IMG/VR virus record: IMGVR_UViG_2529293246_000004
Strand: one strand, 5' to 3'
Source: a virus
Taxonomy: Duplodnaviria; Heunggongvirae; Uroviricota; Caudoviricetes
Length of the DNA stretch: 31,096 nucleotides
Positions 6,727 through 27,513 of this stretch are shown piece by piece; within the stretch, counting starts at the first letter, position 1, and every line of letters begins with the position of its first letter. The notes beneath the pieces are model-generated. The model saw only the letters and a program-made list of their open reading frames with translations. It did not search any database and was not told the DNA's origin. The position numbers were made by a program, and so were the translations under genes.

Positions 6727-6862
6727 TGTCCTGATTTGTACTCACTCATTTTCCGACTGACAATTTACATAGCCAAAACACTATCATTTCCCTGACGTTA
6801 AGTTGTATCTTTGATAGGATTAAAAAATGTATAGATAGCTTATACTATTGAGGGAACAAAAA

Positions 6863-7672
6863 ATGACGCAAATTAGTGAACGATGGAAGCACAACGGCAT
6901 TACTAAAGGTTATTGCAATATTTGTGGAAAATATGACTTCCTCACAAAAGATCATGTTCCTCCAAAGTGTGCCATAACCTTAGGTCCTGTTCTTCAGAAA
7001 ACAGTTAGCGAATTTTTTGGTGTTCAGGAACCAGTTAAACCATTAAATGCTAAAAACGGCTCTTATTTCAAAACCATTTGCAGCCACTGTAACAATAAGG
7101 TGTTAGGTGGACTCGACGTTGCAATTGAAAATGTAGCAAAGTCCTTTAAAGAACAGTTGAGTCAATATATGAATGGTATGAATGTATATCCATTCATTAG
7201 AATACCTTTTGATAGCATATCTTTCACTAAGGCTATGATTGGACACGTGCTATCGGCAACTTCAGTTGAAGATTGTAAAAAAGAACCCGTAGATAGCCCC
7301 TTCTATACACCTTTAAAAGATTATGTTTTGGGTAAGAATCCAAGTTTTGAGGAGACTCATGATATTTACTACTGGTTTTACCCACACAGAATGCACATAT
7401 CAGCTCAAAGTGTAGCATTTATGAACGAAGGACATGTAGCATTTATTTGTGCTTTACATTTTTTTCCTATCGGTTTTATTATCACAATTAAAAATGAAGG
7501 AATATACCCTGCACACTCAACAAAATTAGAACTTAAAGATAAATTCCTTACATTTAACATGACATCTGTAAATTATGAGTATACGACATTTCCATTTGTA
7601 AATCTTAAGGGAAACCAAATGTATGCTATAAGCAACGGCCATACATGTGTGAGTTATCCAATAATTAAGTGA
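6863..7672 (+). CDS. Hypothetical cargo protein with N-terminal HNH-like zinc-finger nuclease motif (Z/fun-position moron)
   Basis: ORF 6848..7672 begins at a TTG; the first ATG is at 6863 with GAGGGAA about 8 nt upstream. N-terminus carries C-x2-C (CNIC), then DHVPP, then C-x2-C-N-x-K (CSHCNNK), the HNH/His-Me finger pattern. GC content is visibly low compared with the flanking tail genes. Opposite strand to the neighbouring structural genes. Confidence 0.6.
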   Translation: MTQISERWKHNGITKGYCNICGKYDFLTKDHVPPKCAITLGPVLQKTVSEFFGVQEPVKPLNAKNGSYFKTICSHCNNKVLGGLDVAIENVAKSFKEQLSQYMNGMNVYPFIRIPFDSISFTKAMIGHVLSATSVEDCKKEPVDSPFYTPLKDYVLGKNPSFEETHDIYYWFYPHRMHISAQSVAFMNEGHVAFICALHFFPIGFIITIKNEGIYPAHSTKLELKDKFLTFNMTSVNYEYTTFPFVNLKGNQMYAISNGHTCVSYPIIK

Positions 7673-19446: not shown

Positions 19447-21219
19447 ATGACCATCACCACAGACACCACTCTTTTACACGACCCGCGTCGTCAGGCGGCG
19501 CTGCTGTACTGGCAGGGATTTTCCGTGCCGCAGATTGCCGCCATGTTGCAGATGAAACGCCCGACGGTGCAGAGCTGGAAACAGCGCGACGGCTGGGACA
19601 GCGTTGCCCCCATCAGCCGTGTCGAAATGAGTCTGGAAGCGCGGCTGACCCAGCTCATCATCAAACCGCAGAAAACCGGCGGTGACTTCAAGGAAATTGA
19701 CCTGCTCGGACGCCAGATTGAACGACTGGCACGGGTAAACCGTTACAGTCAGACCGGCAACGAGGCAGACCTTAATCCGAACGTCGCTAACCGCAACAAA
19801 GGCGGGCGGCGCAAACCGAAAAAGAATTTTTTCAGTGACGAGGCCATCGAAAAGCTGGAGCAGATTTTCTTTGAGCAGTCTTTCGAATATCAGTTGCACT
19901 GGTATCGCGCCGGGCTTGAGCACCGCATCCGCGATATCCTGAAATCCCGCCAGATTGGTGCAACGTTTTATTTTTCCCGCGAGGCGCTGCTGCGCGCCCT
20001 GAAAACCGGTCATAACCAGATTTTTCTGTCGGCCAGTAAAACGCAGGCGTATGTGTTCCGCGAATACATCATCGCCTTTGCCCGGCTGGTTGACGTTGAC
20101 CTGACCGGTGACCCGATTGTCCTGGGCAATAACGGCGCAAAACTGATTTTTCTCGGCACCAACTCCAACACCGCACAGAGCCATAACGGCGACCTGTACG
20201 TCGACGAGATTTTCTGGATCCCGAATTTTCAGGTACTGCGTAAGGTGGCATCAGGTATGGCCTCACAGAGTCACCTGCGCTCGACCTATTTCTCCACCCC
20301 GTCCACGCTGGCGCACGACGCCTACCCGTTCTGGTCGGGTGAACTGTTCAACCGGGGACGCGCCAGCGCCGCCGAACGCGTGGAAATCGACGTCAGTCAT
20401 AACGCCCTTGCCGGCGGGCTTCTCTGTGCGGACGGCCAGTGGCGACAGATTGTCACCATTGAGGACGCCCTGAAAGGCGGCTGCACGCTGTTCGACATTG
20501 AGCAGCTCAAACGCGAAAACAGCGCCGACGATTTTAAAAACCTGTTCATGTGTGAATTTGTTGACGACAAGGCATCGGTGTTCCCGTTCGAGGAGCTGCA
20601 ACGCTGCATGGTCGACACGCTGGAAGAATGGGAAGACTATGCACCGTTTGCCGCCAATCCGTTCGGCTCCCGCCCGGTATGGATTGGTTACGACCCGTCA
20701 CACCGTGGCGACAGCGCCGGATGCGTGGTGCTGGCACCGCCGGTGGTGGCCGGTGGCAAATTCAGAATACTTGAGCGTCACCAGTGGAAAGGCATGGACT
20801 TTGCCACCCAGGCTGAATCCATCCGCAAACTCACCGAAAAATATAACGTCGAATACATCGGTATTGATGCCACCGGCCTCGGTGTCGGCGTGTTCCAGCT
20901 CGTGCGCTCGTTCTATCCTGCCGCGCGCGATATCCGCTACACACCGGAAATGAAAACCGCAATGGTGCTCAAGGCCAAAGACGTTATCCGCCGTGGCTGT
21001 CTGGAATATGACGTCAGCGCCACCGACATCACCAGCTCGTTCATGGCTATCCGCAAGACCATGACCAGCAGCGGACGCAGCGCCACCTATGAGGCCAGCC
21101 GCAGCGAGGAAGCCAGCCACGCCGACCTCGCCTGGGCGACCATGCACGCCCTGTTAAATGAGCCACTCACCGCCGGTATCAGCACCCCGCTGACATCCAC
21201 CATTCTGGAGTTTTACTGA
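19447..21219 (+). CDS. P: Terminase large (ATPase) subunit P
   Basis: ORF 19417..21219 trimmed to MTITTDTTLLHDPRRQAALLYWQGF..., giving 590 aa as in P2 gpP. Confidence 0.9.
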   Translation: MTITTDTTLLHDPRRQAALLYWQGFSVPQIAAMLQMKRPTVQSWKQRDGWDSVAPISRVEMSLEARLTQLIIKPQKTGGDFKEIDLLGRQIERLARVNRYSQTGNEADLNPNVANRNKGGRRKPKKNFFSDEAIEKLEQIFFEQSFEYQLHWYRAGLEHRIRDILKSRQIGATFYFSREALLRALKTGHNQIFLSASKTQAYVFREYIIAFARLVDVDLTGDPIVLGNNGAKLIFLGTNSNTAQSHNGDLYVDEIFWIPNFQVLRKVASGMASQSHLRSTYFSTPSTLAHDAYPFWSGELFNRGRASAAERVEIDVSHNALAGGLLCADGQWRQIVTIEDALKGGCTLFDIEQLKRENSADDFKNLFMCEFVDDKASVFPFEELQRCMVDTLEEWEDYAPFAANPFGSRPVWIGYDPSHRGDSAGCVVLAPPVVAGGKFRILERHQWKGMDFATQAESIRKLTEKYNVEYIGIDATGLGVGVFQLVRSFYPAARDIRYTPEMKTAMVLKAKDVIRRGCLEYDVSATDITSSFMAIRKTMTSSGRSATYEASRSEEASHADLAWATMHALLNEPLTAGISTPLTSTILEFY

Positions 21220-22253
21220 TGAGCAAGAAAAAAGGGAAAACACCGCAACCTGCGGCAAAAACAATGACCGCCAGCGCCCCGAAAATGGAGGCATTCACCT
21301 TTGGTGAGCCGGTGCCGGTACTCGACCGCCGTGACATTCTGGATTACGTCGAGTGCATCAGTAACGGCAGATGGTATGAGCCGCCGGTCAGCTTTACCGG
21401 TCTGGCAAAAAGCCTGCGTGCTGCCGTGCATCACAGCTCACCGATTTACGTCAAACGCAATATTCTGGCTTCAACGTTTATCCCGCACCCGTGGCTTTCC
21501 CAGCAGGATTTCAGCCGCTTTGTGCTGGATTTTCTGGTGTTCGGTAATGCGTTTCTGGAAAAGCGTTACAGCACCACCGGCAAGGTCATCAGACTGGAAA
21601 CCTCACCGGCAAAATATACCCGCCGTGGCGTGGAGGAGGATGTTTACTGGTGGGTGCCTTCCTTCAACGAGCCGACAGCCTTCGCACCTGGCTCCGTGTT
21701 TCATCTGCTGGAGCCGGATATTAATCAGGAGCTGTACGGCCTGCCGGAATATCTCAGCGCCCTTAACTCTGCCTGGCTGAATGAGTCGGCCACGCTGTTC
21801 CGCCGCAAGTATTACGAAAACGGCGCGCATGCCGGATACATCATGTACGTTACCGATGCCGTGCAGGATCGCAACGATATCGAAATGCTTCGCGAAAACA
21901 TGGTGAAGTCGAAAGGCCGCAACAACTTTAAAAACCTGTTTCTCTATGCCCCGCAGGGGAAAGCCGACGGCATTAAAATTATCCCGCTCAGTGAAGTGGC
22001 GACGAAGGACGATTTTTTTAATATCAAAAAAGCCAGCGCCGCTGACCTGCTGGACGCACACCGCATCCCCTTTCAGTTGATGGGTGGCAAGCCGGAGAAC
22101 GTCGGGTCACTGGGCGATATTGAGAAAGTGGCAAAGGTCTTTGTCCGCAATGAGCTAATCCCGTTACAGGACAGGATTCGGGAAATAAACGGCTGGCTCG
22201 GCCAGGAGGTCATCCGCTTTAAAAACTACTCACTGGACACTGACAACGGCTGA
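21219..22253 (+). CDS. Q: Portal protein Q
   Basis: 344 aa (P2 gpQ length). ATG overlaps the P stop. Last gene before cos. Confidence 0.9.
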   Translation: MSKKKGKTPQPAAKTMTASAPKMEAFTFGEPVPVLDRRDILDYVECISNGRWYEPPVSFTGLAKSLRAAVHHSSPIYVKRNILASTFIPHPWLSQQDFSRFVLDFLVFGNAFLEKRYSTTGKVIRLETSPAKYTRRGVEEDVYWWVPSFNEPTAFAPGSVFHLLEPDINQELYGLPEYLSALNSAWLNESATLFRRKYYENGAHAGYIMYVTDAVQDRNDIEMLRENMVKSKGRNNFKNLFLYAPQGKADGIKIIPLSEVATKDDFFNIKKASAADLLDAHRIPFQLMGGKPENVGSLGDIEKVAKVFVRNELIPLQDRIREINGWLGQEVIRFKNYSLDTDNG

Positions 22254-22679: not shown

Positions 22680-23621
22680 ATGCAAGGTGAAGTTGACGAA
22701 CAGCAACCAAATGAGATTATTTCGGAGTTTGGATACTATCCAGTAGAAGTTAACATTGAGACTGAACAATTTTCTTTGCGTACTTTACCCGGTCTTATTG
22801 AGAAAGTGGAACGTATTAACAATGATAAAAACGTTGTTAATGGTTGGATATACCCTGGGAATCGAGAGGTATATAACCTTAATGGTGACTCATGCACAAT
22901 GCCTTATAGTTACCGAGTATTCGGCATGCCCAAAACGCACACACTAAAATTAAAAAACACATCCTCGTTAGAAACTCTCAACTTTGTTGTGTGGTGCCTC
23001 TCTTTTTTCAAGGGTATAAGATTGACAACCACTGACGCTGGTTTTCTTGATGCAACCACTATCAAGCCCACTAAGTTAACCGATTTTATTCTCGTTGGAT
23101 GCTCTGAAAAAGAAGTCATAGAACTGGCTCTTAATTATATAACTAACAAACAAAAGGATGCGCACTCCCCCAAAAGAATTGCGGCAGTGGTGCATGCGCT
23201 ATTCTTATCTCAAAACCCACAATACCTTCCTTTTGAAAAATTCCAGTACCTTTACATGGCACTTGATGGTTGCTTTGCTTTATCGTGGGCTGAGCATGAC
23301 AAGGCTCCTGATAAAACCCAGCCAAATCATTCCAAGCGATTAAAGTGGATGTGCAGAATTTATGGGTTATCAATCCCCACATGGGTATCAGGCAAAAAAA
23401 ACATTTCTGGCATCCGCAATGATAATTTTCATGAGGCTATTTTTTTTGGCCAACCACTTGGTTTTTCCAGTGTTAACAACAATCAATATGGTAACGATAT
23501 ATTACTGCAAATGCAGAAACTCGTTTGTCGCCTATTAGCGGCAATACTGTCGGTTAATGATTGCGGTTATCTCAAATCTTCGGTCAACTCACGAGAGTAC
23601 CATTCATTAAAATTAACTTAA
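22680..23621 (+). CDS. Hypothetical cargo protein, 313 aa, at the position P2 uses for old
   Basis: ATG at 22680 with GGAGA 7 nt upstream. AT-rich. I recognise no conserved motif and see no Walker A P-loop. Opposite strand to the early operon, as P2 old is. Confidence 0.6.
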   Translation: MQGEVDEQQPNEIISEFGYYPVEVNIETEQFSLRTLPGLIEKVERINNDKNVVNGWIYPGNREVYNLNGDSCTMPYSYRVFGMPKTHTLKLKNTSSLETLNFVVWCLSFFKGIRLTTTDAGFLDATTIKPTKLTDFILVGCSEKEVIELALNYITNKQKDAHSPKRIAAVVHALFLSQNPQYLPFEKFQYLYMALDGCFALSWAEHDKAPDKTQPNHSKRLKWMCRIYGLSIPTWVSGKKNISGIRNDNFHEAIFFGQPLGFSSVNNNQYGNDILLQMQKLVCRLLAAILSVNDCGYLKSSVNSREYHSLKLT

Positions 23622-23652
23622 TGCTAACGCCTCACTTCGTTCGTTGTTCAAC

Positions 23653-23690
23653 CCCGCCAGCACTGAAAACATGTTTCATTGCTGGCGGGG
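23653..23690 (+). terminator. Long hairpin downstream of the 313-aa gene
   Basis: CCCCGCCAGC ... GCTGGCGGGG 10-bp stem around an 18-nt loop that is itself palindromic, followed by TTCTCT. Begins about 30 nt after the stop codon. Confidence 0.45.
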
Positions 23691-23941
23691 TTCTCTATCG
23701 TCTGCGTGGTGGCGGCGCAAGGCTGGACTGACCGATATAGTTAAGCTGTTCGTAATTATCCCTGACTATTTCGGCACACCCGACTAGCTCATCGGGCGTC
23801 AGATTTTCGTTGACCATAATCTGCTGTAAACGGTGAACAATGGCCATCAACCTGACACTTTTGGTGTTATATGTGGTATCTCACATGAGATTACTGACCA
23901 AGGTGCATCTTGGTTGACTCATTTCATATCCATCCACACCA

Positions 23942-24622
23942 CTACATCTTTATTGCATATTTATTAAAAGACGCCCAGTTCAACAAAAAAACATTATTCA
24001 TATACCATTCAATATAATTTTTATTTTTAGATTGACTGTCAAGTAGCACACAAACATCAACCTGTTTATCAATCAATTTTGCAATATAAACCACAAACTC
24101 AACACTCGAATATCTCTTTGTGCCTAGCAAATATAATATTTCATCTGACAAATAATTAGACTCATGTGAAAAGACATTATCATTTAACAAAATCAATCCG
24201 CCAATCGAGTCATTTAAATCCAAAACATCCTTTGTTGCATTTATTTGCTTATTAGCTTCTTTAACTACCTTTGTTTTAATATTTTCATAAGCAAAGTTCA
24301 TTATATCATTTCTAAATCGCTTTGAGTCTGGGTGTCTTTTTATCAACTCTTCTAAATGAATAGCACCATGCCAGTTTTTTGCAAGCCAACTATCAGTTTT
24401 AACCAACTCATTCAGTTTATCATTGACATTCTTGACCCTGTCAGAAAAAAGACTTTTCATCTCCAAAATTATCTTTTTATTATCAATAAGATAATCTGCC
24501 ATCTTGCGATTCTGACCATCCTTCATCCGGAACTTATGATGAATATCATCAATAGAAATCCCTTTTTCATGCTCAACAATGAATCTCTTAACATTGTTTT
24601 CTAATTCGCTGTATTGTTTCAT
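23942..24622 (-). CDS. Hypothetical cargo protein, 226 aa, at the position P2 uses for tin
   Basis: ATG at 24622 with GGGGGA upstream. Markedly AT-rich, Lys/Asn-rich protein with no motif I recognise. Directly downstream of a small gene on the same strand. Confidence 0.6.
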   Translation of the reverse strand: MKQYSELENNVKRFIVEHEKGISIDDIHHKFRMKDGQNRKMADYLIDNKKIILEMKSLFSDRVKNVNDKLNELVKTDSWLAKNWHGAIHLEELIKRHPDSKRFRNDIMNFAYENIKTKVVKEANKQINATKDVLDLNDSIGGLILLNDNVFSHESNYLSDEILYLLGTKRYSSVEFVVYIAKLIDKQVDVCVLLDSQSKNKNYIEWYMNNVFLLNWASFNKYAIKM

Positions 24623-24649
24623 TCTTTCCCCCGTGAATTTTATTGTGAT

Positions 24650-24841
24650 TCACTTACGTGGACGACACAGCATACCACTTTTACTCTCTGCTATTTCCAG
24701 TAAATCAATGGAGAATGACTCCTCGTGCAAAACTCCTTCTTTATCATGCCAAATACATTTAGCATGAGTCTCAGTAGAGTCAGATACAGTCATTTTAAAT
24801 CCACCGCTTTTCAAACAAACAACATCTGCAGGCTTTAACAT
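24650..24841 (-). CDS. Small DUF2158/YodC-like protein, 63 aa
   Basis: ORF 24650..24925 trimmed to the ATG at 24841, which has GGAGA 5-6 nt upstream. Sequence MLKPADVVCLKSGGFKMTVSDSTETHAKCIWHDKEGVLHEESF resembles the GD-VV-LKSGGP-MTV...C-W core of YodC-like small proteins. First gene of a two-gene minus-strand unit. Confidence 0.55.
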   Translation of the reverse strand: MLKPADVVCLKSGGFKMTVSDSTETHAKCIWHDKEGVLHEESFSIDLLEIAESKSGMLCRPRK

Positions 24842-24968
24842 TTTTGTCTCCAACATTTTTAAGTAATGCATTATAACATAATGATATTGACGTAGATTTA
24901 ATGCATGCAACCATATAAAAAACAATCAATTACAGTCAAAACTGCTTAATACTGTATAGATGAGATCA

Positions 24969-27248
24969 TTACTCAAATTGATGCCAGAATCCCGGCCACT
25001 CATCAGCGACCGGATACGTGAATTTTTTCCCGTCATAATTTACGGTCGCGCCACGCGCCAGCGCCTCAAGCTCCCATCGCTGCGGCCTGATACCGTTCTG
25101 AGCAAGGTCAACGCGGATACGGGTGATTTGCAATCGTTCAGACCGGCTCAGTCTGGCCGATGGTGCAATTTCATGCGGTTTTAACGGGCTTCCGTTTCTT
25201 TGTTGACGATTTGGCGTTCTCAGCCCGTGTTTTAATGCGCCCCTGAGCGCCCTCACGACATCCGGGTCATTCCATTCGATAACACCGTCATCAGCCAGAT
25301 TAAGCACGGCTGCGGCGTGTTCAGAAGGCGTGGGAGCCGGTAACGAAGTATTACCGCCGGTGAGCTTTCCACAGTTATTGACAGGACTCCGAGGCGCGGC
25401 GATGCCGCTTTTTAAAGTCAAAGGCTCAACGACCGGCACTTTCGGAACAATGCGCCAGTCCGTCGTTCTGGTGATATGAATATGACGCGCGCCGAGATGC
25501 GGCGCGTAAATGCCGACCACTCTCTCGACTTCTTCCTCGTACTCGTTAACGTCATCCGACGGGCTACGGGCAACCCTGACAGTCTGGCAATCGCGCGGGA
25601 CATTTGCCCCACCCTGCGCGCTGATATACAGCGCAAAATCACCACTGTCTGCGGCGGCGCGTGCAGCCTCGACGCGCTCGTCAAACTCATCAGCAATGCT
25701 GACGCCGCGAGGCAATTTGCGTAGTTCACGGTAAGCCCCCATTGTCGGCAGGCCAACCGTTTTAAATTGCGGAATGCGCCACGTTGACGCCCATGCGGTA
25801 ACAGCCGCGGCAGTATCTTTCAGCGGTCTGCCGGTATCGTTATCGAGCTGCCCATCCAGTGCATAGCCGTCGATATTTTTTGAGATGTATTTCGCGATAT
25901 ACCCCGCAGCACCGCCCCGGTTAAGGTGTTTTTCCTGAAAACGGTTTCGCGCGGCTCCTCTTTCGTCGCCATCCTCTTTGAGCGCATAGCGACGCATGAT
26001 TTCGATAATCTGGTTACGCTGGCGTGGATGACAAAAAAGCATCATATGCCAGTGCGGCGTTCCGTCGTGGTGTGGCTCGACGACACGCAAACCGTAGACC
26101 TGTAAATCATTATCCTTGAATGCCGTGCGCATCAGGCTCCAGATACGGCAGAGATAACGCTGCGCATCCTTTGGATTAAATGCCTCATCGTTCCAGCCGT
26201 GATTAAGCTGAACGGTTTTACTTTCGCCTTTTCCGACCTGACGTGTCGGGTGATACTTTGACGGCGCGGTCAGCGTGATAAACATCCCCAAATCACCCTC
26301 TGCGGCGGCGTAACGCTCAATACCGGCAATGGTGTTCATCAGCTCCATCCGGCGAATTTCTGGATTAGAAATACTGCCCATCACCTTACTGATAAGGTCG
26401 ATGCGCTCGCCGGTTTCCCTGTTTTCAAGGTCACACGATTTAAGAAATTCCAGATTTGCCTGGCGGCGCGCACGCACATCACGAATGGCATGTTTACTGG
26501 CATAAGGAGAACGGTCTTTATTGACCTCCCCGACAGCAATCAGTAACGCCTCATGCCAGCGCATACGCTGGCCTTTAAGCTGACTAATCCACCACTCATC
26601 GTTAAACAGACGGGCAATGGCAGAATATGCCTGCCTCGTGGTCATCTGTCCTTTACTGTATTTTTTCCAGTAGAGCGGGGAAATATTGAAAGCACGTGCA
26701 GCGCCAGCAACATGACCATACAGGTGAGCCTGCGCCTCATCCGTAAACAGCGATTCTTTTTCACCATGCGCATCAACCCATGCATCGCAGAGTTCCTCAT
26801 ACATCATGAAAAGCTGCGATGAGATACGGGCGGCAAACTTTTTCAGCTCCTTGTCATTCATTCCAGGCAGGCGCGCATAGTGGTCACGCTCTGCCAGAAA
26901 CAGCAACGACGCGTCGGTGTTCATTTCATGGCGCTGATTCACGCGCTCAATGCGCGGCCATAAACGACGCTGAAAAGTGGATGTGAGGAAATAAAACCCG
27001 TGCACCGGGCTTTTATTGCGCCGGATGTAGTCATAGCGTGAAGTAAACAGCGAACGCAAAAAGTAAGGCAGGCGGTTAATCGTGGATAAAACACCTTGCA
27101 CCTGACGCATCTCGTCACGTGTAAGGGGTCTTTCGCGCCCGACGGCCTCGCGTGGCGCGTTCCATGCATAAGCACCGGTAAACGTCTTACCGGTGCCTGC
27201 GGCAAATGCTGACGGAGGGACAAAACGCCCGGAGGCTTTAACGTCCAT
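24969..27248 (-). CDS. A: Replication initiation protein A (rolling-circle nicking endonuclease)
   Basis: ORF 24969..27290 (773 aa from a TTG) trimmed to the first ATG at 27248, giving 759 aa, close to P2 gpA (761 aa). Last gene of the early operon. Confidence 0.88.
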   Translation of the reverse strand: MDVKASGRFVPPSAFAAGTGKTFTGAYAWNAPREAVGRERPLTRDEMRQVQGVLSTINRLPYFLRSLFTSRYDYIRRNKSPVHGFYFLTSTFQRRLWPRIERVNQRHEMNTDASLLFLAERDHYARLPGMNDKELKKFAARISSQLFMMYEELCDAWVDAHGEKESLFTDEAQAHLYGHVAGAARAFNISPLYWKKYSKGQMTTRQAYSAIARLFNDEWWISQLKGQRMRWHEALLIAVGEVNKDRSPYASKHAIRDVRARRQANLEFLKSCDLENRETGERIDLISKVMGSISNPEIRRMELMNTIAGIERYAAAEGDLGMFITLTAPSKYHPTRQVGKGESKTVQLNHGWNDEAFNPKDAQRYLCRIWSLMRTAFKDNDLQVYGLRVVEPHHDGTPHWHMMLFCHPRQRNQIIEIMRRYALKEDGDERGAARNRFQEKHLNRGGAAGYIAKYISKNIDGYALDGQLDNDTGRPLKDTAAAVTAWASTWRIPQFKTVGLPTMGAYRELRKLPRGVSIADEFDERVEAARAAADSGDFALYISAQGGANVPRDCQTVRVARSPSDDVNEYEEEVERVVGIYAPHLGARHIHITRTTDWRIVPKVPVVEPLTLKSGIAAPRSPVNNCGKLTGGNTSLPAPTPSEHAAAVLNLADDGVIEWNDPDVVRALRGALKHGLRTPNRQQRNGSPLKPHEIAPSARLSRSERLQITRIRVDLAQNGIRPQRWELEALARGATVNYDGKKFTYPVADEWPGFWHQFE

Positions 27249-27513
27249 GTGAGCCAAAAGCCTCTGAACAACGCTTGCTGAGTTGCTCAACCTGCGCGTT
27301 TAAATCAGCAAAAGATTTTGCGCTTCCGGTCAGAATATCGTGATGCATCAGGCCGGAAACGAGCTGGCTTAATTTCGGGTAATAACCAACCACCGCCAGC
27401 CATTCCTGACCGGCGTTTTTACCGCTTTCCGCTCTCTTTTTCTCGTGGAGAATAAACTGAAAGCTGTCACTGGTAACGACATAACGTTCGCCAATTTCAA
27501 TACGAATACTCAT
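27238..27513 (-). CDS. Hypothetical early-operon protein, 91 aa
   Basis: ATG at 27513 with GGAGA upstream. Stop overlaps the A start; start overlaps the stop of the upstream gene (ATGA). Position of the small orfs preceding A in P2. Confidence 0.6.
   Translation of the reverse strand: MSIRIEIGERYVVTSDSFQFILHEKKRAESGKNAGQEWLAVVGYYPKLSQLVSGLMHHDILTGSAKSFADLNAQVEQLSKRCSEAFGSHGR

Follow-up and report, generated by a model that had tools for sequence, protein, structure and literature searches.

In IMG/VR virus record IMGVR_UViG_2529293246_000004, a stretch of 31,096 bp that was analysed at its full length (hereafter the window) and that is essentially a complete P2-like (Peduovirus) prophage, two minus-strand genes occupy the position at which phage P2 carries tin. 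They encode a 63-amino-acid (aa) protein of the DUF2158/YodC family and a 226-aa protein, P2-EC67 ORF226. On balance, we infer that the two genes form a nuclease-based superinfection-exclusion or anti-phage cassette with a lineage-specific accessory protein. The region of the two genes is 100% identical to Escherichia coli strain HCP5S3_I4. An earlier note on this DNA, made from the letters alone, had given the coordinates, the strand, the spacing of 27 nucleotides (nt) and the tin position of the two genes, and all of these hold.

The cassette might work as follows. The 226-aa product would be a metal-dependent nuclease of the PD-(D/E)xK type (restriction-endonuclease fold) and would belong to a widespread, unnamed family whose members usually occur alone on mobile elements. 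In the enterobacterial P2 lineage, this nuclease would have gained an upstream accessory subunit, the 63-aa KOW/SH3-like DUF2158 protein. The unit would be expressed in the lysogen, with transcription driven by an extended -10 promoter of its own, and the nuclease would cut the nucleic acid of invaders or, if defence is abortive, that of the cell. The small barrel protein may restrain, target or trigger the nuclease, possibly via its disordered basic tail. In this scheme, we infer both the defence role and a physical interaction of the two proteins.

ORF226 and its relatives

The large gene had been described in the earlier note as AT-rich and its product as rich in Lys and Asn, and our figures agree (30% guanine-plus-cytosine (GC) content; Lys plus Asn 22%; isoelectric point 8.7). 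The protein matched no Pfam, NCBIfam or PADLOC model at threshold and fell only into a PHROG of unknown function. Its matches to Tape_meas_lam_C (E 0.09) and RQC_minor_2 (E 0.006, 15 bits against a cut-off of 300) were scan noise. No homology to a housekeeping or structural family was found, which is consistent with the earlier proposal of an effector. Close homologues (at least 64% identity) were limited to Escherichia, Salmonella, Citrobacter and Pantoea. A profile search with HMMER of 1.84 billion representative proteins recovered 346 relatives at E <= 1e-3 and 75 at E <= 1e-10. By length, family members are stand-alone proteins of about 230-260 aa, proteins of about 330-345 aa with a C-terminal extension, or proteins of about 600-740 aa. 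In the longest class, an N-terminal Mrr_cat domain is followed by the ORF226-like domain at about residues 345-520, and some of these proteins end in a SEC-C motif (P0053, P0069, P0139 and others). The fusion of Mrr_cat to the ORF226-like domain is a two-nuclease-domain architecture. Alignment by hhalign of the ORF226-family profile with a shallow alignment of the fused Mrr_cat domains was negative (probability 0.3%).

The assignment of ORF226 to the PD-(D/E)xK nucleases comes from residue conservation and from a structure model. D43, E54, K56 and Q126 were invariant in 90 sequences that are 20-40% identical to ORF226. In the same sequences N147, T130, A123 and D25 were nearly invariant (D25 in 81 of the 90), and E8 was found in 63. 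The family signature is K-[KR]-A-D-[YF] ... E-x-K-[ST]-L, then [AS]-x-x-Q-I-x-x-T-K, then L-N-[DE]. In the AlphaFold2 model of ORF226 (predicted local distance difference test (pLDDT) 81.6; predicted template modelling score (pTM) 0.78), D43 lies just before the strand of residues 44-46, E54-x-K56 lies in the strand of residues 51-57, and both strands form a hairpin behind the N-terminal helix that bears E8. In the model, this placement of the motif resembles the canonical PD-(D/E)xK layout. The residues that such enzymes carry, an aspartate followed by (D/E)-x-K together with an upstream acidic residue, are all present in the ORF226 family. Moreover, several relatives gave sub-threshold matches to the Pfam family REase_DpnII-MboI (PF18742) over the motif (best E 1.3e-4; at most 17.7 bits against a cut-off of 27). 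We are fairly confident that ORF226 is a PD-(D/E)xK-type enzyme of an uncurated family, its catalytic activity being predicted from the conserved residues and the model.

We also considered where the relatives of ORF226 are encoded. A homologue from Pantoea ananatis (64% identical; 240 aa, with a 14-aa C-terminal extension) stands alone (loci L003-L006). It is carried by IncFII-type conjugative plasmids, between a PLD-family (PLDc_2) nuclease/repA region and a relaxase gene (27 contigs), and some copies lie near a Macro-domain gene. The Pantoea loci have an upstream region of their own, and no DUF2158-like open reading frame (ORF) was found in about 500 nt upstream of the gene or across the 12-kb loci. 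A relative with 41% identity, which has no DUF2158 neighbour, immediately follows a CI/S24-type prophage repressor gene (L028, 4327..6539). It also adjoins a serine recombinase gene and a gene of the DUF4238 family, which has been validated as anti-T7 defence (PMC9122126). In another locus type, the gene of a 346-aa relative overlaps a DACND-DACNH-DAC (diadenylate-cyclase-type) gene at the stop codon of the latter (L030, 2508..5041; L031, 3..1837), which suggests that some members of the family may be effectors of a cyclic-nucleotide signalling system. Recent reports implicate DAC-domain proteins in anti-phage defence.

This cyclase link was confined to one locus type, and the most frequent neighbours of 56 more distant relatives did not include it. 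These 56, all true family members, were retrieved by a degenerate-motif scan of representative genomes and come from many phyla. None of the 56 loci (up to 8 kb) contained a DUF2158 ORF, and a few of them adjoin Schlafen/AlbA_2, Abi_C, trypsin-like peptidase or transposase genes. Thus, the ORF226 family is mainly stand-alone, mobile and patchily distributed, and having a DUF2158 partner is a peculiarity of the enterobacterial P2 lineage.

The DUF2158 partner and the pair as a unit

The small protein had been called DUF2158-like in the earlier note, and this was borne out by a Pfam match with an E value of 4.7e-8 and 33.1 bits, above the gathering cut-off of 22.3 bits. In an AlphaFold2 model built on a 65-sequence alignment, residues 7-50 form a small five-stranded beta-barrel (pLDDT about 90) that models as KOW/SH3-like. 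The C-terminal tail (residues 51-63) was modelled as disordered; it is basic and variable and is the fastest-evolving part of the protein. Neither the Pfam scan nor the predicted structure revealed a ribbon-helix-helix (RHH), helix-turn-helix (HTH) or AbrB-type DNA-binding domain, and a PDB sequence search with the protein gave nothing credible. Between the window and the Citrobacter copies, the ratio of nonsynonymous to synonymous substitution rates was 0.20-0.23 for the small gene and about 0.08 for the large gene. Such low ratios reflect purifying selection and indicate that both are real genes and not chance ORFs.

For expression of the unit, the earlier note had proposed two candidate promoter elements, TTGACT (24939..24934) and TATAAT (24875..24870), and both are present. 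Since TATAAT has TG in front of it (24878..24877), it is an extended -10 element, for which a good -35 element is not needed. TGnTATAAT, the GGAG ribosome-binding site and the ATG start codon were invariant across three Citrobacter loci whose proteins are 74-84% identical, whereas TTGACT was not conserved in them. The sequence around the ribosome-binding site of the small gene, GTTGGAGA, was conserved in all four aligned loci. Annotations in GenBank and RefSeq make the small protein 73 aa (GenBank AM157369) or 91 aa long (elsewhere) by using upstream ATG or TTG starts; because these starts are out of frame in Citrobacter, the product of 63 aa is the supported one. Neither a consensus promoter nor a terminator was predicted in the spacer between the two genes, and the promoter scan also listed a promoter-like match within the ORF226 coding region (24204). 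These sequence features make the extended -10 element the most likely promoter of the pair, presumably active in the lysogen.

The earlier note had made its reading depend on co-occurrence of the two genes in other genomes, and this was found. The pair was intact and adjacent, with a gap of 27-43 nt, in 28 of 28 P2-like loci examined (the window, P2-EC67, phage vB_EcoM-720R8, eight E. coli/Salmonella genome loci, eight IMG/VR contigs and nine Citrobacter/metagenome loci). When the genes were searched for separately at low stringency among 5426 complete E. coli genomes, both had their matches in one and the same set of 27, with a single match per gene in each genome. A tblastn search with the 63-aa protein matched two phage records only, and the pair is present in 2 of 50,697 phage records; the hotspot query matched 99 P2-like phage records, far more than carry the pair. 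No locus was found in which this DUF2158 subfamily lies beside another gene. The representative genomes held no member of the close subfamily, and no copy of the cassette was found in a scan of PLSDB.

Two Salmonella loci carry altered copies. In CP030214 (L017, 2626..3237) ORF226 is shortened to 203 aa and the small gene is intact, and in AAJDXT010000089 (L162, 92..226) the small gene is interrupted by an IS21 element, on a contig too short to show the state of ORF226.

The pair lies between the gene for gpA, the replication endonuclease, and the portal gene, where P2 carries tin and old. This locus is a hotspot of anti-phage defence (Rousset 2022, PMC9122126; Vassallo 2022, PMC9519451). GC content drops to 30-43% between the two flanking genes, which have about 54%. 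Megablast similarity to P2, Wphi and others spans positions 23624-23882 of the window and ends there. In six Citrobacter loci the pair alone occupies the hotspot, and the slot that in the window holds ORF313, the gene at the old position, contains in Citrobacter a DUF2188 gene, a 250-aa gene or nothing. Because ORF313 and the other neighbours vary while the pair persists, the cassette was delimited to the two genes and their immediate borders (Table 1). In other P2-like phages this site is filled by different cargo, and an Rfam scan of the hotspot gave no match. Horizontal acquisition into the P2 tin/old hotspot is the best explanation for the cassette. The evidence supports the pair as a conserved, co-transcribed-looking unit in a known defence hotspot.

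Alternative explanations and known systems

Several results weigh against a nuclease-based defence cassette. ORF226 had no significant match to any curated nuclease family profile. When its model was compared with the PDB by Foldseek, nothing was found at E <= 0.001; the top matches, Cas4 SSO0001 (the best, E 0.12) and Rai1, are also PD-(D/E)xK proteins, with E values of at least 0.12. Searches of PDB sequences with both family profiles gave nothing credible, and a match to shikimate kinase (E 0.04) was set aside as a chance match to the ExK strand. PADLOC v2 (PADLOC-DB v2.0.0) gave no match, at E values up to 1, for the 63-aa protein, ORF226, ORF313 or a 51-aa protein encoded downstream of the pair, and the PADLOC matches of distant ORF226-family members were scattered and weak. 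The neighbours of the 56 distant relatives are heterogeneous and mostly not defence genes, many of them being housekeeping genes. DUF2158 is also common as a solitary small gene in lytic phages and in chromosomes, and the role given here to the small protein is conjectural. Finally, the hairpin beyond the minus-strand unit has no canonical U-tract on the minus strand.

The pair might instead be a classic type II toxin-antitoxin (addiction) module, in which ORF226 would be a toxic nuclease and the DUF2158 protein a labile, autoregulating antitoxin, and in which losing the antitoxin would bring about defence or stabilise the prophage. We consider this unlikely. The gene order is that of such modules, with a small upstream gene, a gap of 27 nt, a larger downstream gene and a single promoter, and the small protein, like many antitoxins, combines a folded core with a C-terminal tail that is disordered and evolves fast. 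In P2-like prophages the two genes always co-occur, ORF226 is naturally truncated beside an intact small gene in one genome (CP030214), and an unrelated novel toxin-antitoxin pair, PD-T4-10, was validated as defence in an E. coli screen (PMC9519451). However, the 64%-identical homologue on Pantoea plasmids is solo, and the 41%-identical relative and the 56 distant relatives also lack DUF2158, which speaks against dependence of the large gene on the small one. In addition, the small protein has no RHH, HTH or AbrB-type domain, IS21 interrupts the small gene in one Salmonella assembly (the contig stopping short of ORF226), and no toxin or antitoxin model of PADLOC matched. Since relatives of ORF226 are nearly always without a DUF2158 neighbour, an obligate antitoxin role is unlikely. 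The earlier note had suggested a regulator-effector or toxin-antitoxin pair. The conserved unit and the effector hallmarks of ORF226 agree with this suggestion in its broad form, while the partnerless relatives weaken the strict toxin-antitoxin form.

It is rather improbable that the two genes are functionally unrelated neighbours, namely a solitary nuclease (in defence, or as a selfish type IV or homing-like enzyme) and an independent DUF2158 moron, for example a host-modulating or anti-defence factor, linked by common descent only. The nuclease family is overwhelmingly solo. DUF2158 proteins likewise are nearly all stand-alone; a profile search found at least 1581 PF09926 clusters, nearly all of them stand-alone proteins of 50-100 aa, and DUF2158 genes lie in the early-gene arrays of phAPEC8-, CR9- and Aeromonas-type lytic phages. 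All sampled pairs come from one narrow clade (Escherichia, Salmonella and Citrobacter), so shared ancestry could explain their co-occurrence, and synonymous divergence between the window and Citrobacter is unequal, at about 0.6 in the small gene and about 1.2-1.7 in the large one. Nevertheless, the pair stays adjacent, with a short gap and one conserved promoter, while its surroundings recombine, and this DUF2158 subfamily is found beside no other gene.

A further possibility, which we regard as a long shot, is that DUF2158/YodC is a general KOW-like sensor or adaptor subunit of bacterial immunity that gates an autonomous PD-(D/E)xK nuclease. The free barrel would then, in the manner of the C-terminal domain of NusG, bind a host or phage factor, perhaps a part of the transcription-translation machinery or a phage protein aimed at that machinery, and DUF2158 would have the same role beside DRT2 reverse transcriptases. 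YodC-domain genes accompany UG2 (DRT2) reverse transcriptases, and some are fused to WYL (Mestre et al. 2022); beyond UG2 (DRT2), no further literature link of DUF2158/YodC to defence was found. The UG2/DRT2 systems resemble the pair in that the same small domain (YodC/COG5475, which is DUF2158) is encoded beside a defence effector. They differ in that their effector is a reverse transcriptase and not a predicted nuclease, and in that YodC is the N-terminal domain of larger proteins, some of them WYL-fused, and not a free 63-aa protein. Such a sensor role would, if true, be the first function for a family with at least 1,500 clusters, E. coli YodC among its members, and would add a new modular family of nuclease effectors.

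Least probable of all, and very improbable, is a role in the life cycle of the phage itself, as a recombination or replication nuclease or in degradation of host DNA during lytic growth: the unit is directly downstream of replication gene A on the same strand, so that early-operon read-through is possible, and PD-(D/E)xK nucleases are common as phage recombination enzymes, but just 27 of 5426 E. coli genomes and 2 of 50,697 phage records carry the pair, which has foreign GC content and a conserved promoter of its own, has homologues on plasmids and beside a CI repressor gene, and is replaced by different cargo in other P2-like phages.

The nuclease-based cassette that we favour can be compared with several known systems. 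It shares with P2 tin/old the slot between gpA and cos/portal, the low GC content of the cargo and an expected role in lysogenic conversion. In both, the tin-position gene has the orientation of A, and the old position is occupied by a gene of the opposite strand (here ORF313). The difference is that no sequence or domain similarity connects the two, the window encoding a PD-(D/E)xK-type protein and a KOW-like partner. Tin targets the single-stranded DNA-binding protein of T-even phages. Old is an ABC-ATPase and TOPRIM protein. With the PD-(D/E)xK superfamily (BsmI, N.BspD6I, NgoMIV and BstYI; PF18742) ORF226 shares the invariant D...ExK on a modelled hairpin after an N-terminal helix, and it differs from these enzymes by the family-specific 'QIxxTK' helix and 'LN(D/E)' motif.

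With regard to restriction-modification, no cognate methyltransferase was found, and the other ORFs of the hotspot (ORF313 and the 51-aa ORF) have no methyltransferase domain. Unlike the signalling effectors NucC of the cyclic-oligonucleotide-based antiphage signalling system (CBASS) and Can2/Card1 of type III CRISPR, ORF226 has neither a sensor extension nor a cyclase neighbour. The toxin-antitoxin pair PD-T4-10 is similar in having a small upstream gene and a larger downstream effector of unknown family (PMC9519451). It differs in that homologues of ORF226 occur without the small gene. PADLOC, which we take to contain models for PD-T4-10, gave no match for the pair. P2-like prophages were a main source of the systems found in the same screen, with 7 of 21 (Vassallo 2022, PMC9519451).

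Neighbouring features and significance

Table 1. Features in and around the two-gene cassette (positions in the window)
Feature	Position	Strand	Remarks
Portal gene Q	21219..22253	+	Other flank of the hotspot
ORF313	22680..23621	+	old position; phrog_5937; no Pfam, NCBIfam or PADLOC family
GC-rich hairpin, 19-bp arms	23650..23692	.	Between ORF313 and the minus-strand unit, which are convergent
51-aa ORF related to Wphi gp92 (phrog_11386)	23695..23850	-	Semi-conserved P2 backbone, downstream of the pair
Low-GC two-gene cassette	23883..24968	-	32% GC; from the gene A stop codon to the resumption of P2/Wphi backbone similarity
226-aa protein (P2-EC67 ORF226), predicted PD-(D/E)xK-type nuclease	23942..24622	-	
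Putative catalytic beta-hairpin codons, A-D43-Y ... E54-M-K56	24455..24496	-	From conservation and model
Intergenic spacer, 27 nt	24623..24649	-	Shine-Dalgarno-like GGGGGA at 24632..24627 for the 226-aa gene
63-aa DUF2158/YodC-family protein	24650..24841	-	Pfam DUF2158 PF09926, residues 6-46
GGAG ribosome-binding site	24848..24851	-	6 nt upstream of the small-gene ATG
Extended -10 element TGtTATAAT	24870..24878	-	Predicted, probable promoter of the unit; read from sequence
Gene A (gpA, replication endonuclease)	24969..27290	-	Directly upstream of the two-gene unit, same strand

ORF313 was examined as a third component of the system and rejected, since at least 72 E. coli genomes have ORF313 without the pair and the pair also occurs without ORF313. 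Among 5426 complete E. coli genomes, 99 carry ORF313, and most of these have no copy of the pair; ORF313 also occurs in phages without the pair. Two alleles of ORF313 (about 100% and about 82% aa identity) were found beside a virtually invariant pair. The uncharacterised ORF313 is a hotspot gene in its own right and a defence candidate apart from the pair. The 51-aa ORF is probably co-transcribed with the pair and lies outside the cassette; it is absent beside the pair in Citrobacter loci. The GC-rich hairpin (-34.3 kcal/mol, z -5.6) is, from its sequence and position, likely to be the 3' end of both convergent transcripts. A DinI-like gene, orf91, normally follows gene A in P2, Wphi and 613R3 and is missing in this phage. 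The possibility that the small gene is itself the conserved P2 orf91 was rejected, as Wphi and 613R3 carry the DinI-like orf91 there. Elsewhere in the window there is a second low-GC island (6848..7672, plus strand; 35-43% GC), which holds a 274-aa ORF between the tail-sheath and tail-fibre genes, where P2-like phages have their Z/fun hotspot. The ORF matched nothing in Pfam or PADLOC and is another unassigned candidate accessory gene.

The locus itself is already known. A 2006 deposition (AM157369) names it 'P2-EC67 proviral ORF226 and ORF313' and calls the small gene ORF73, and the arrangement 'DUF2158 + hypothetical + hypothetical' appears, with no function assigned, in Table S5A of Rousset et al. 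2022 (PMC9122126). The cassette appears not to be the three-gene 'no predicted domain' system of P1 defence from the same study; PADLOC gave no match, and in the available part of the source the accessions stand only in the arrangement table. Among the full texts searched, none connects DUF2158 with this locus. The assignment of the nuclease family, the fold of the partner and the pattern of co-occurrence are new here.

The hotspots of P2-like prophages are a proven anti-phage reservoir, and most of the untested cargo tried so far has proved defensive. The cassette is a sound candidate for such a test; activity would not overturn current concepts and would be no surprise to a specialist. If the cassette is active, an unnamed PD-(D/E)xK family with about 350 representative clusters in many phyla would join the repertoire of defence effectors, and DUF2158/YodC, a very common small protein, would gain its first functional handle. 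The partnered effector of the P2 lineage and the solo effectors of Pantoea plasmids and others would then offer a natural comparison for how accessory subunits are recruited.

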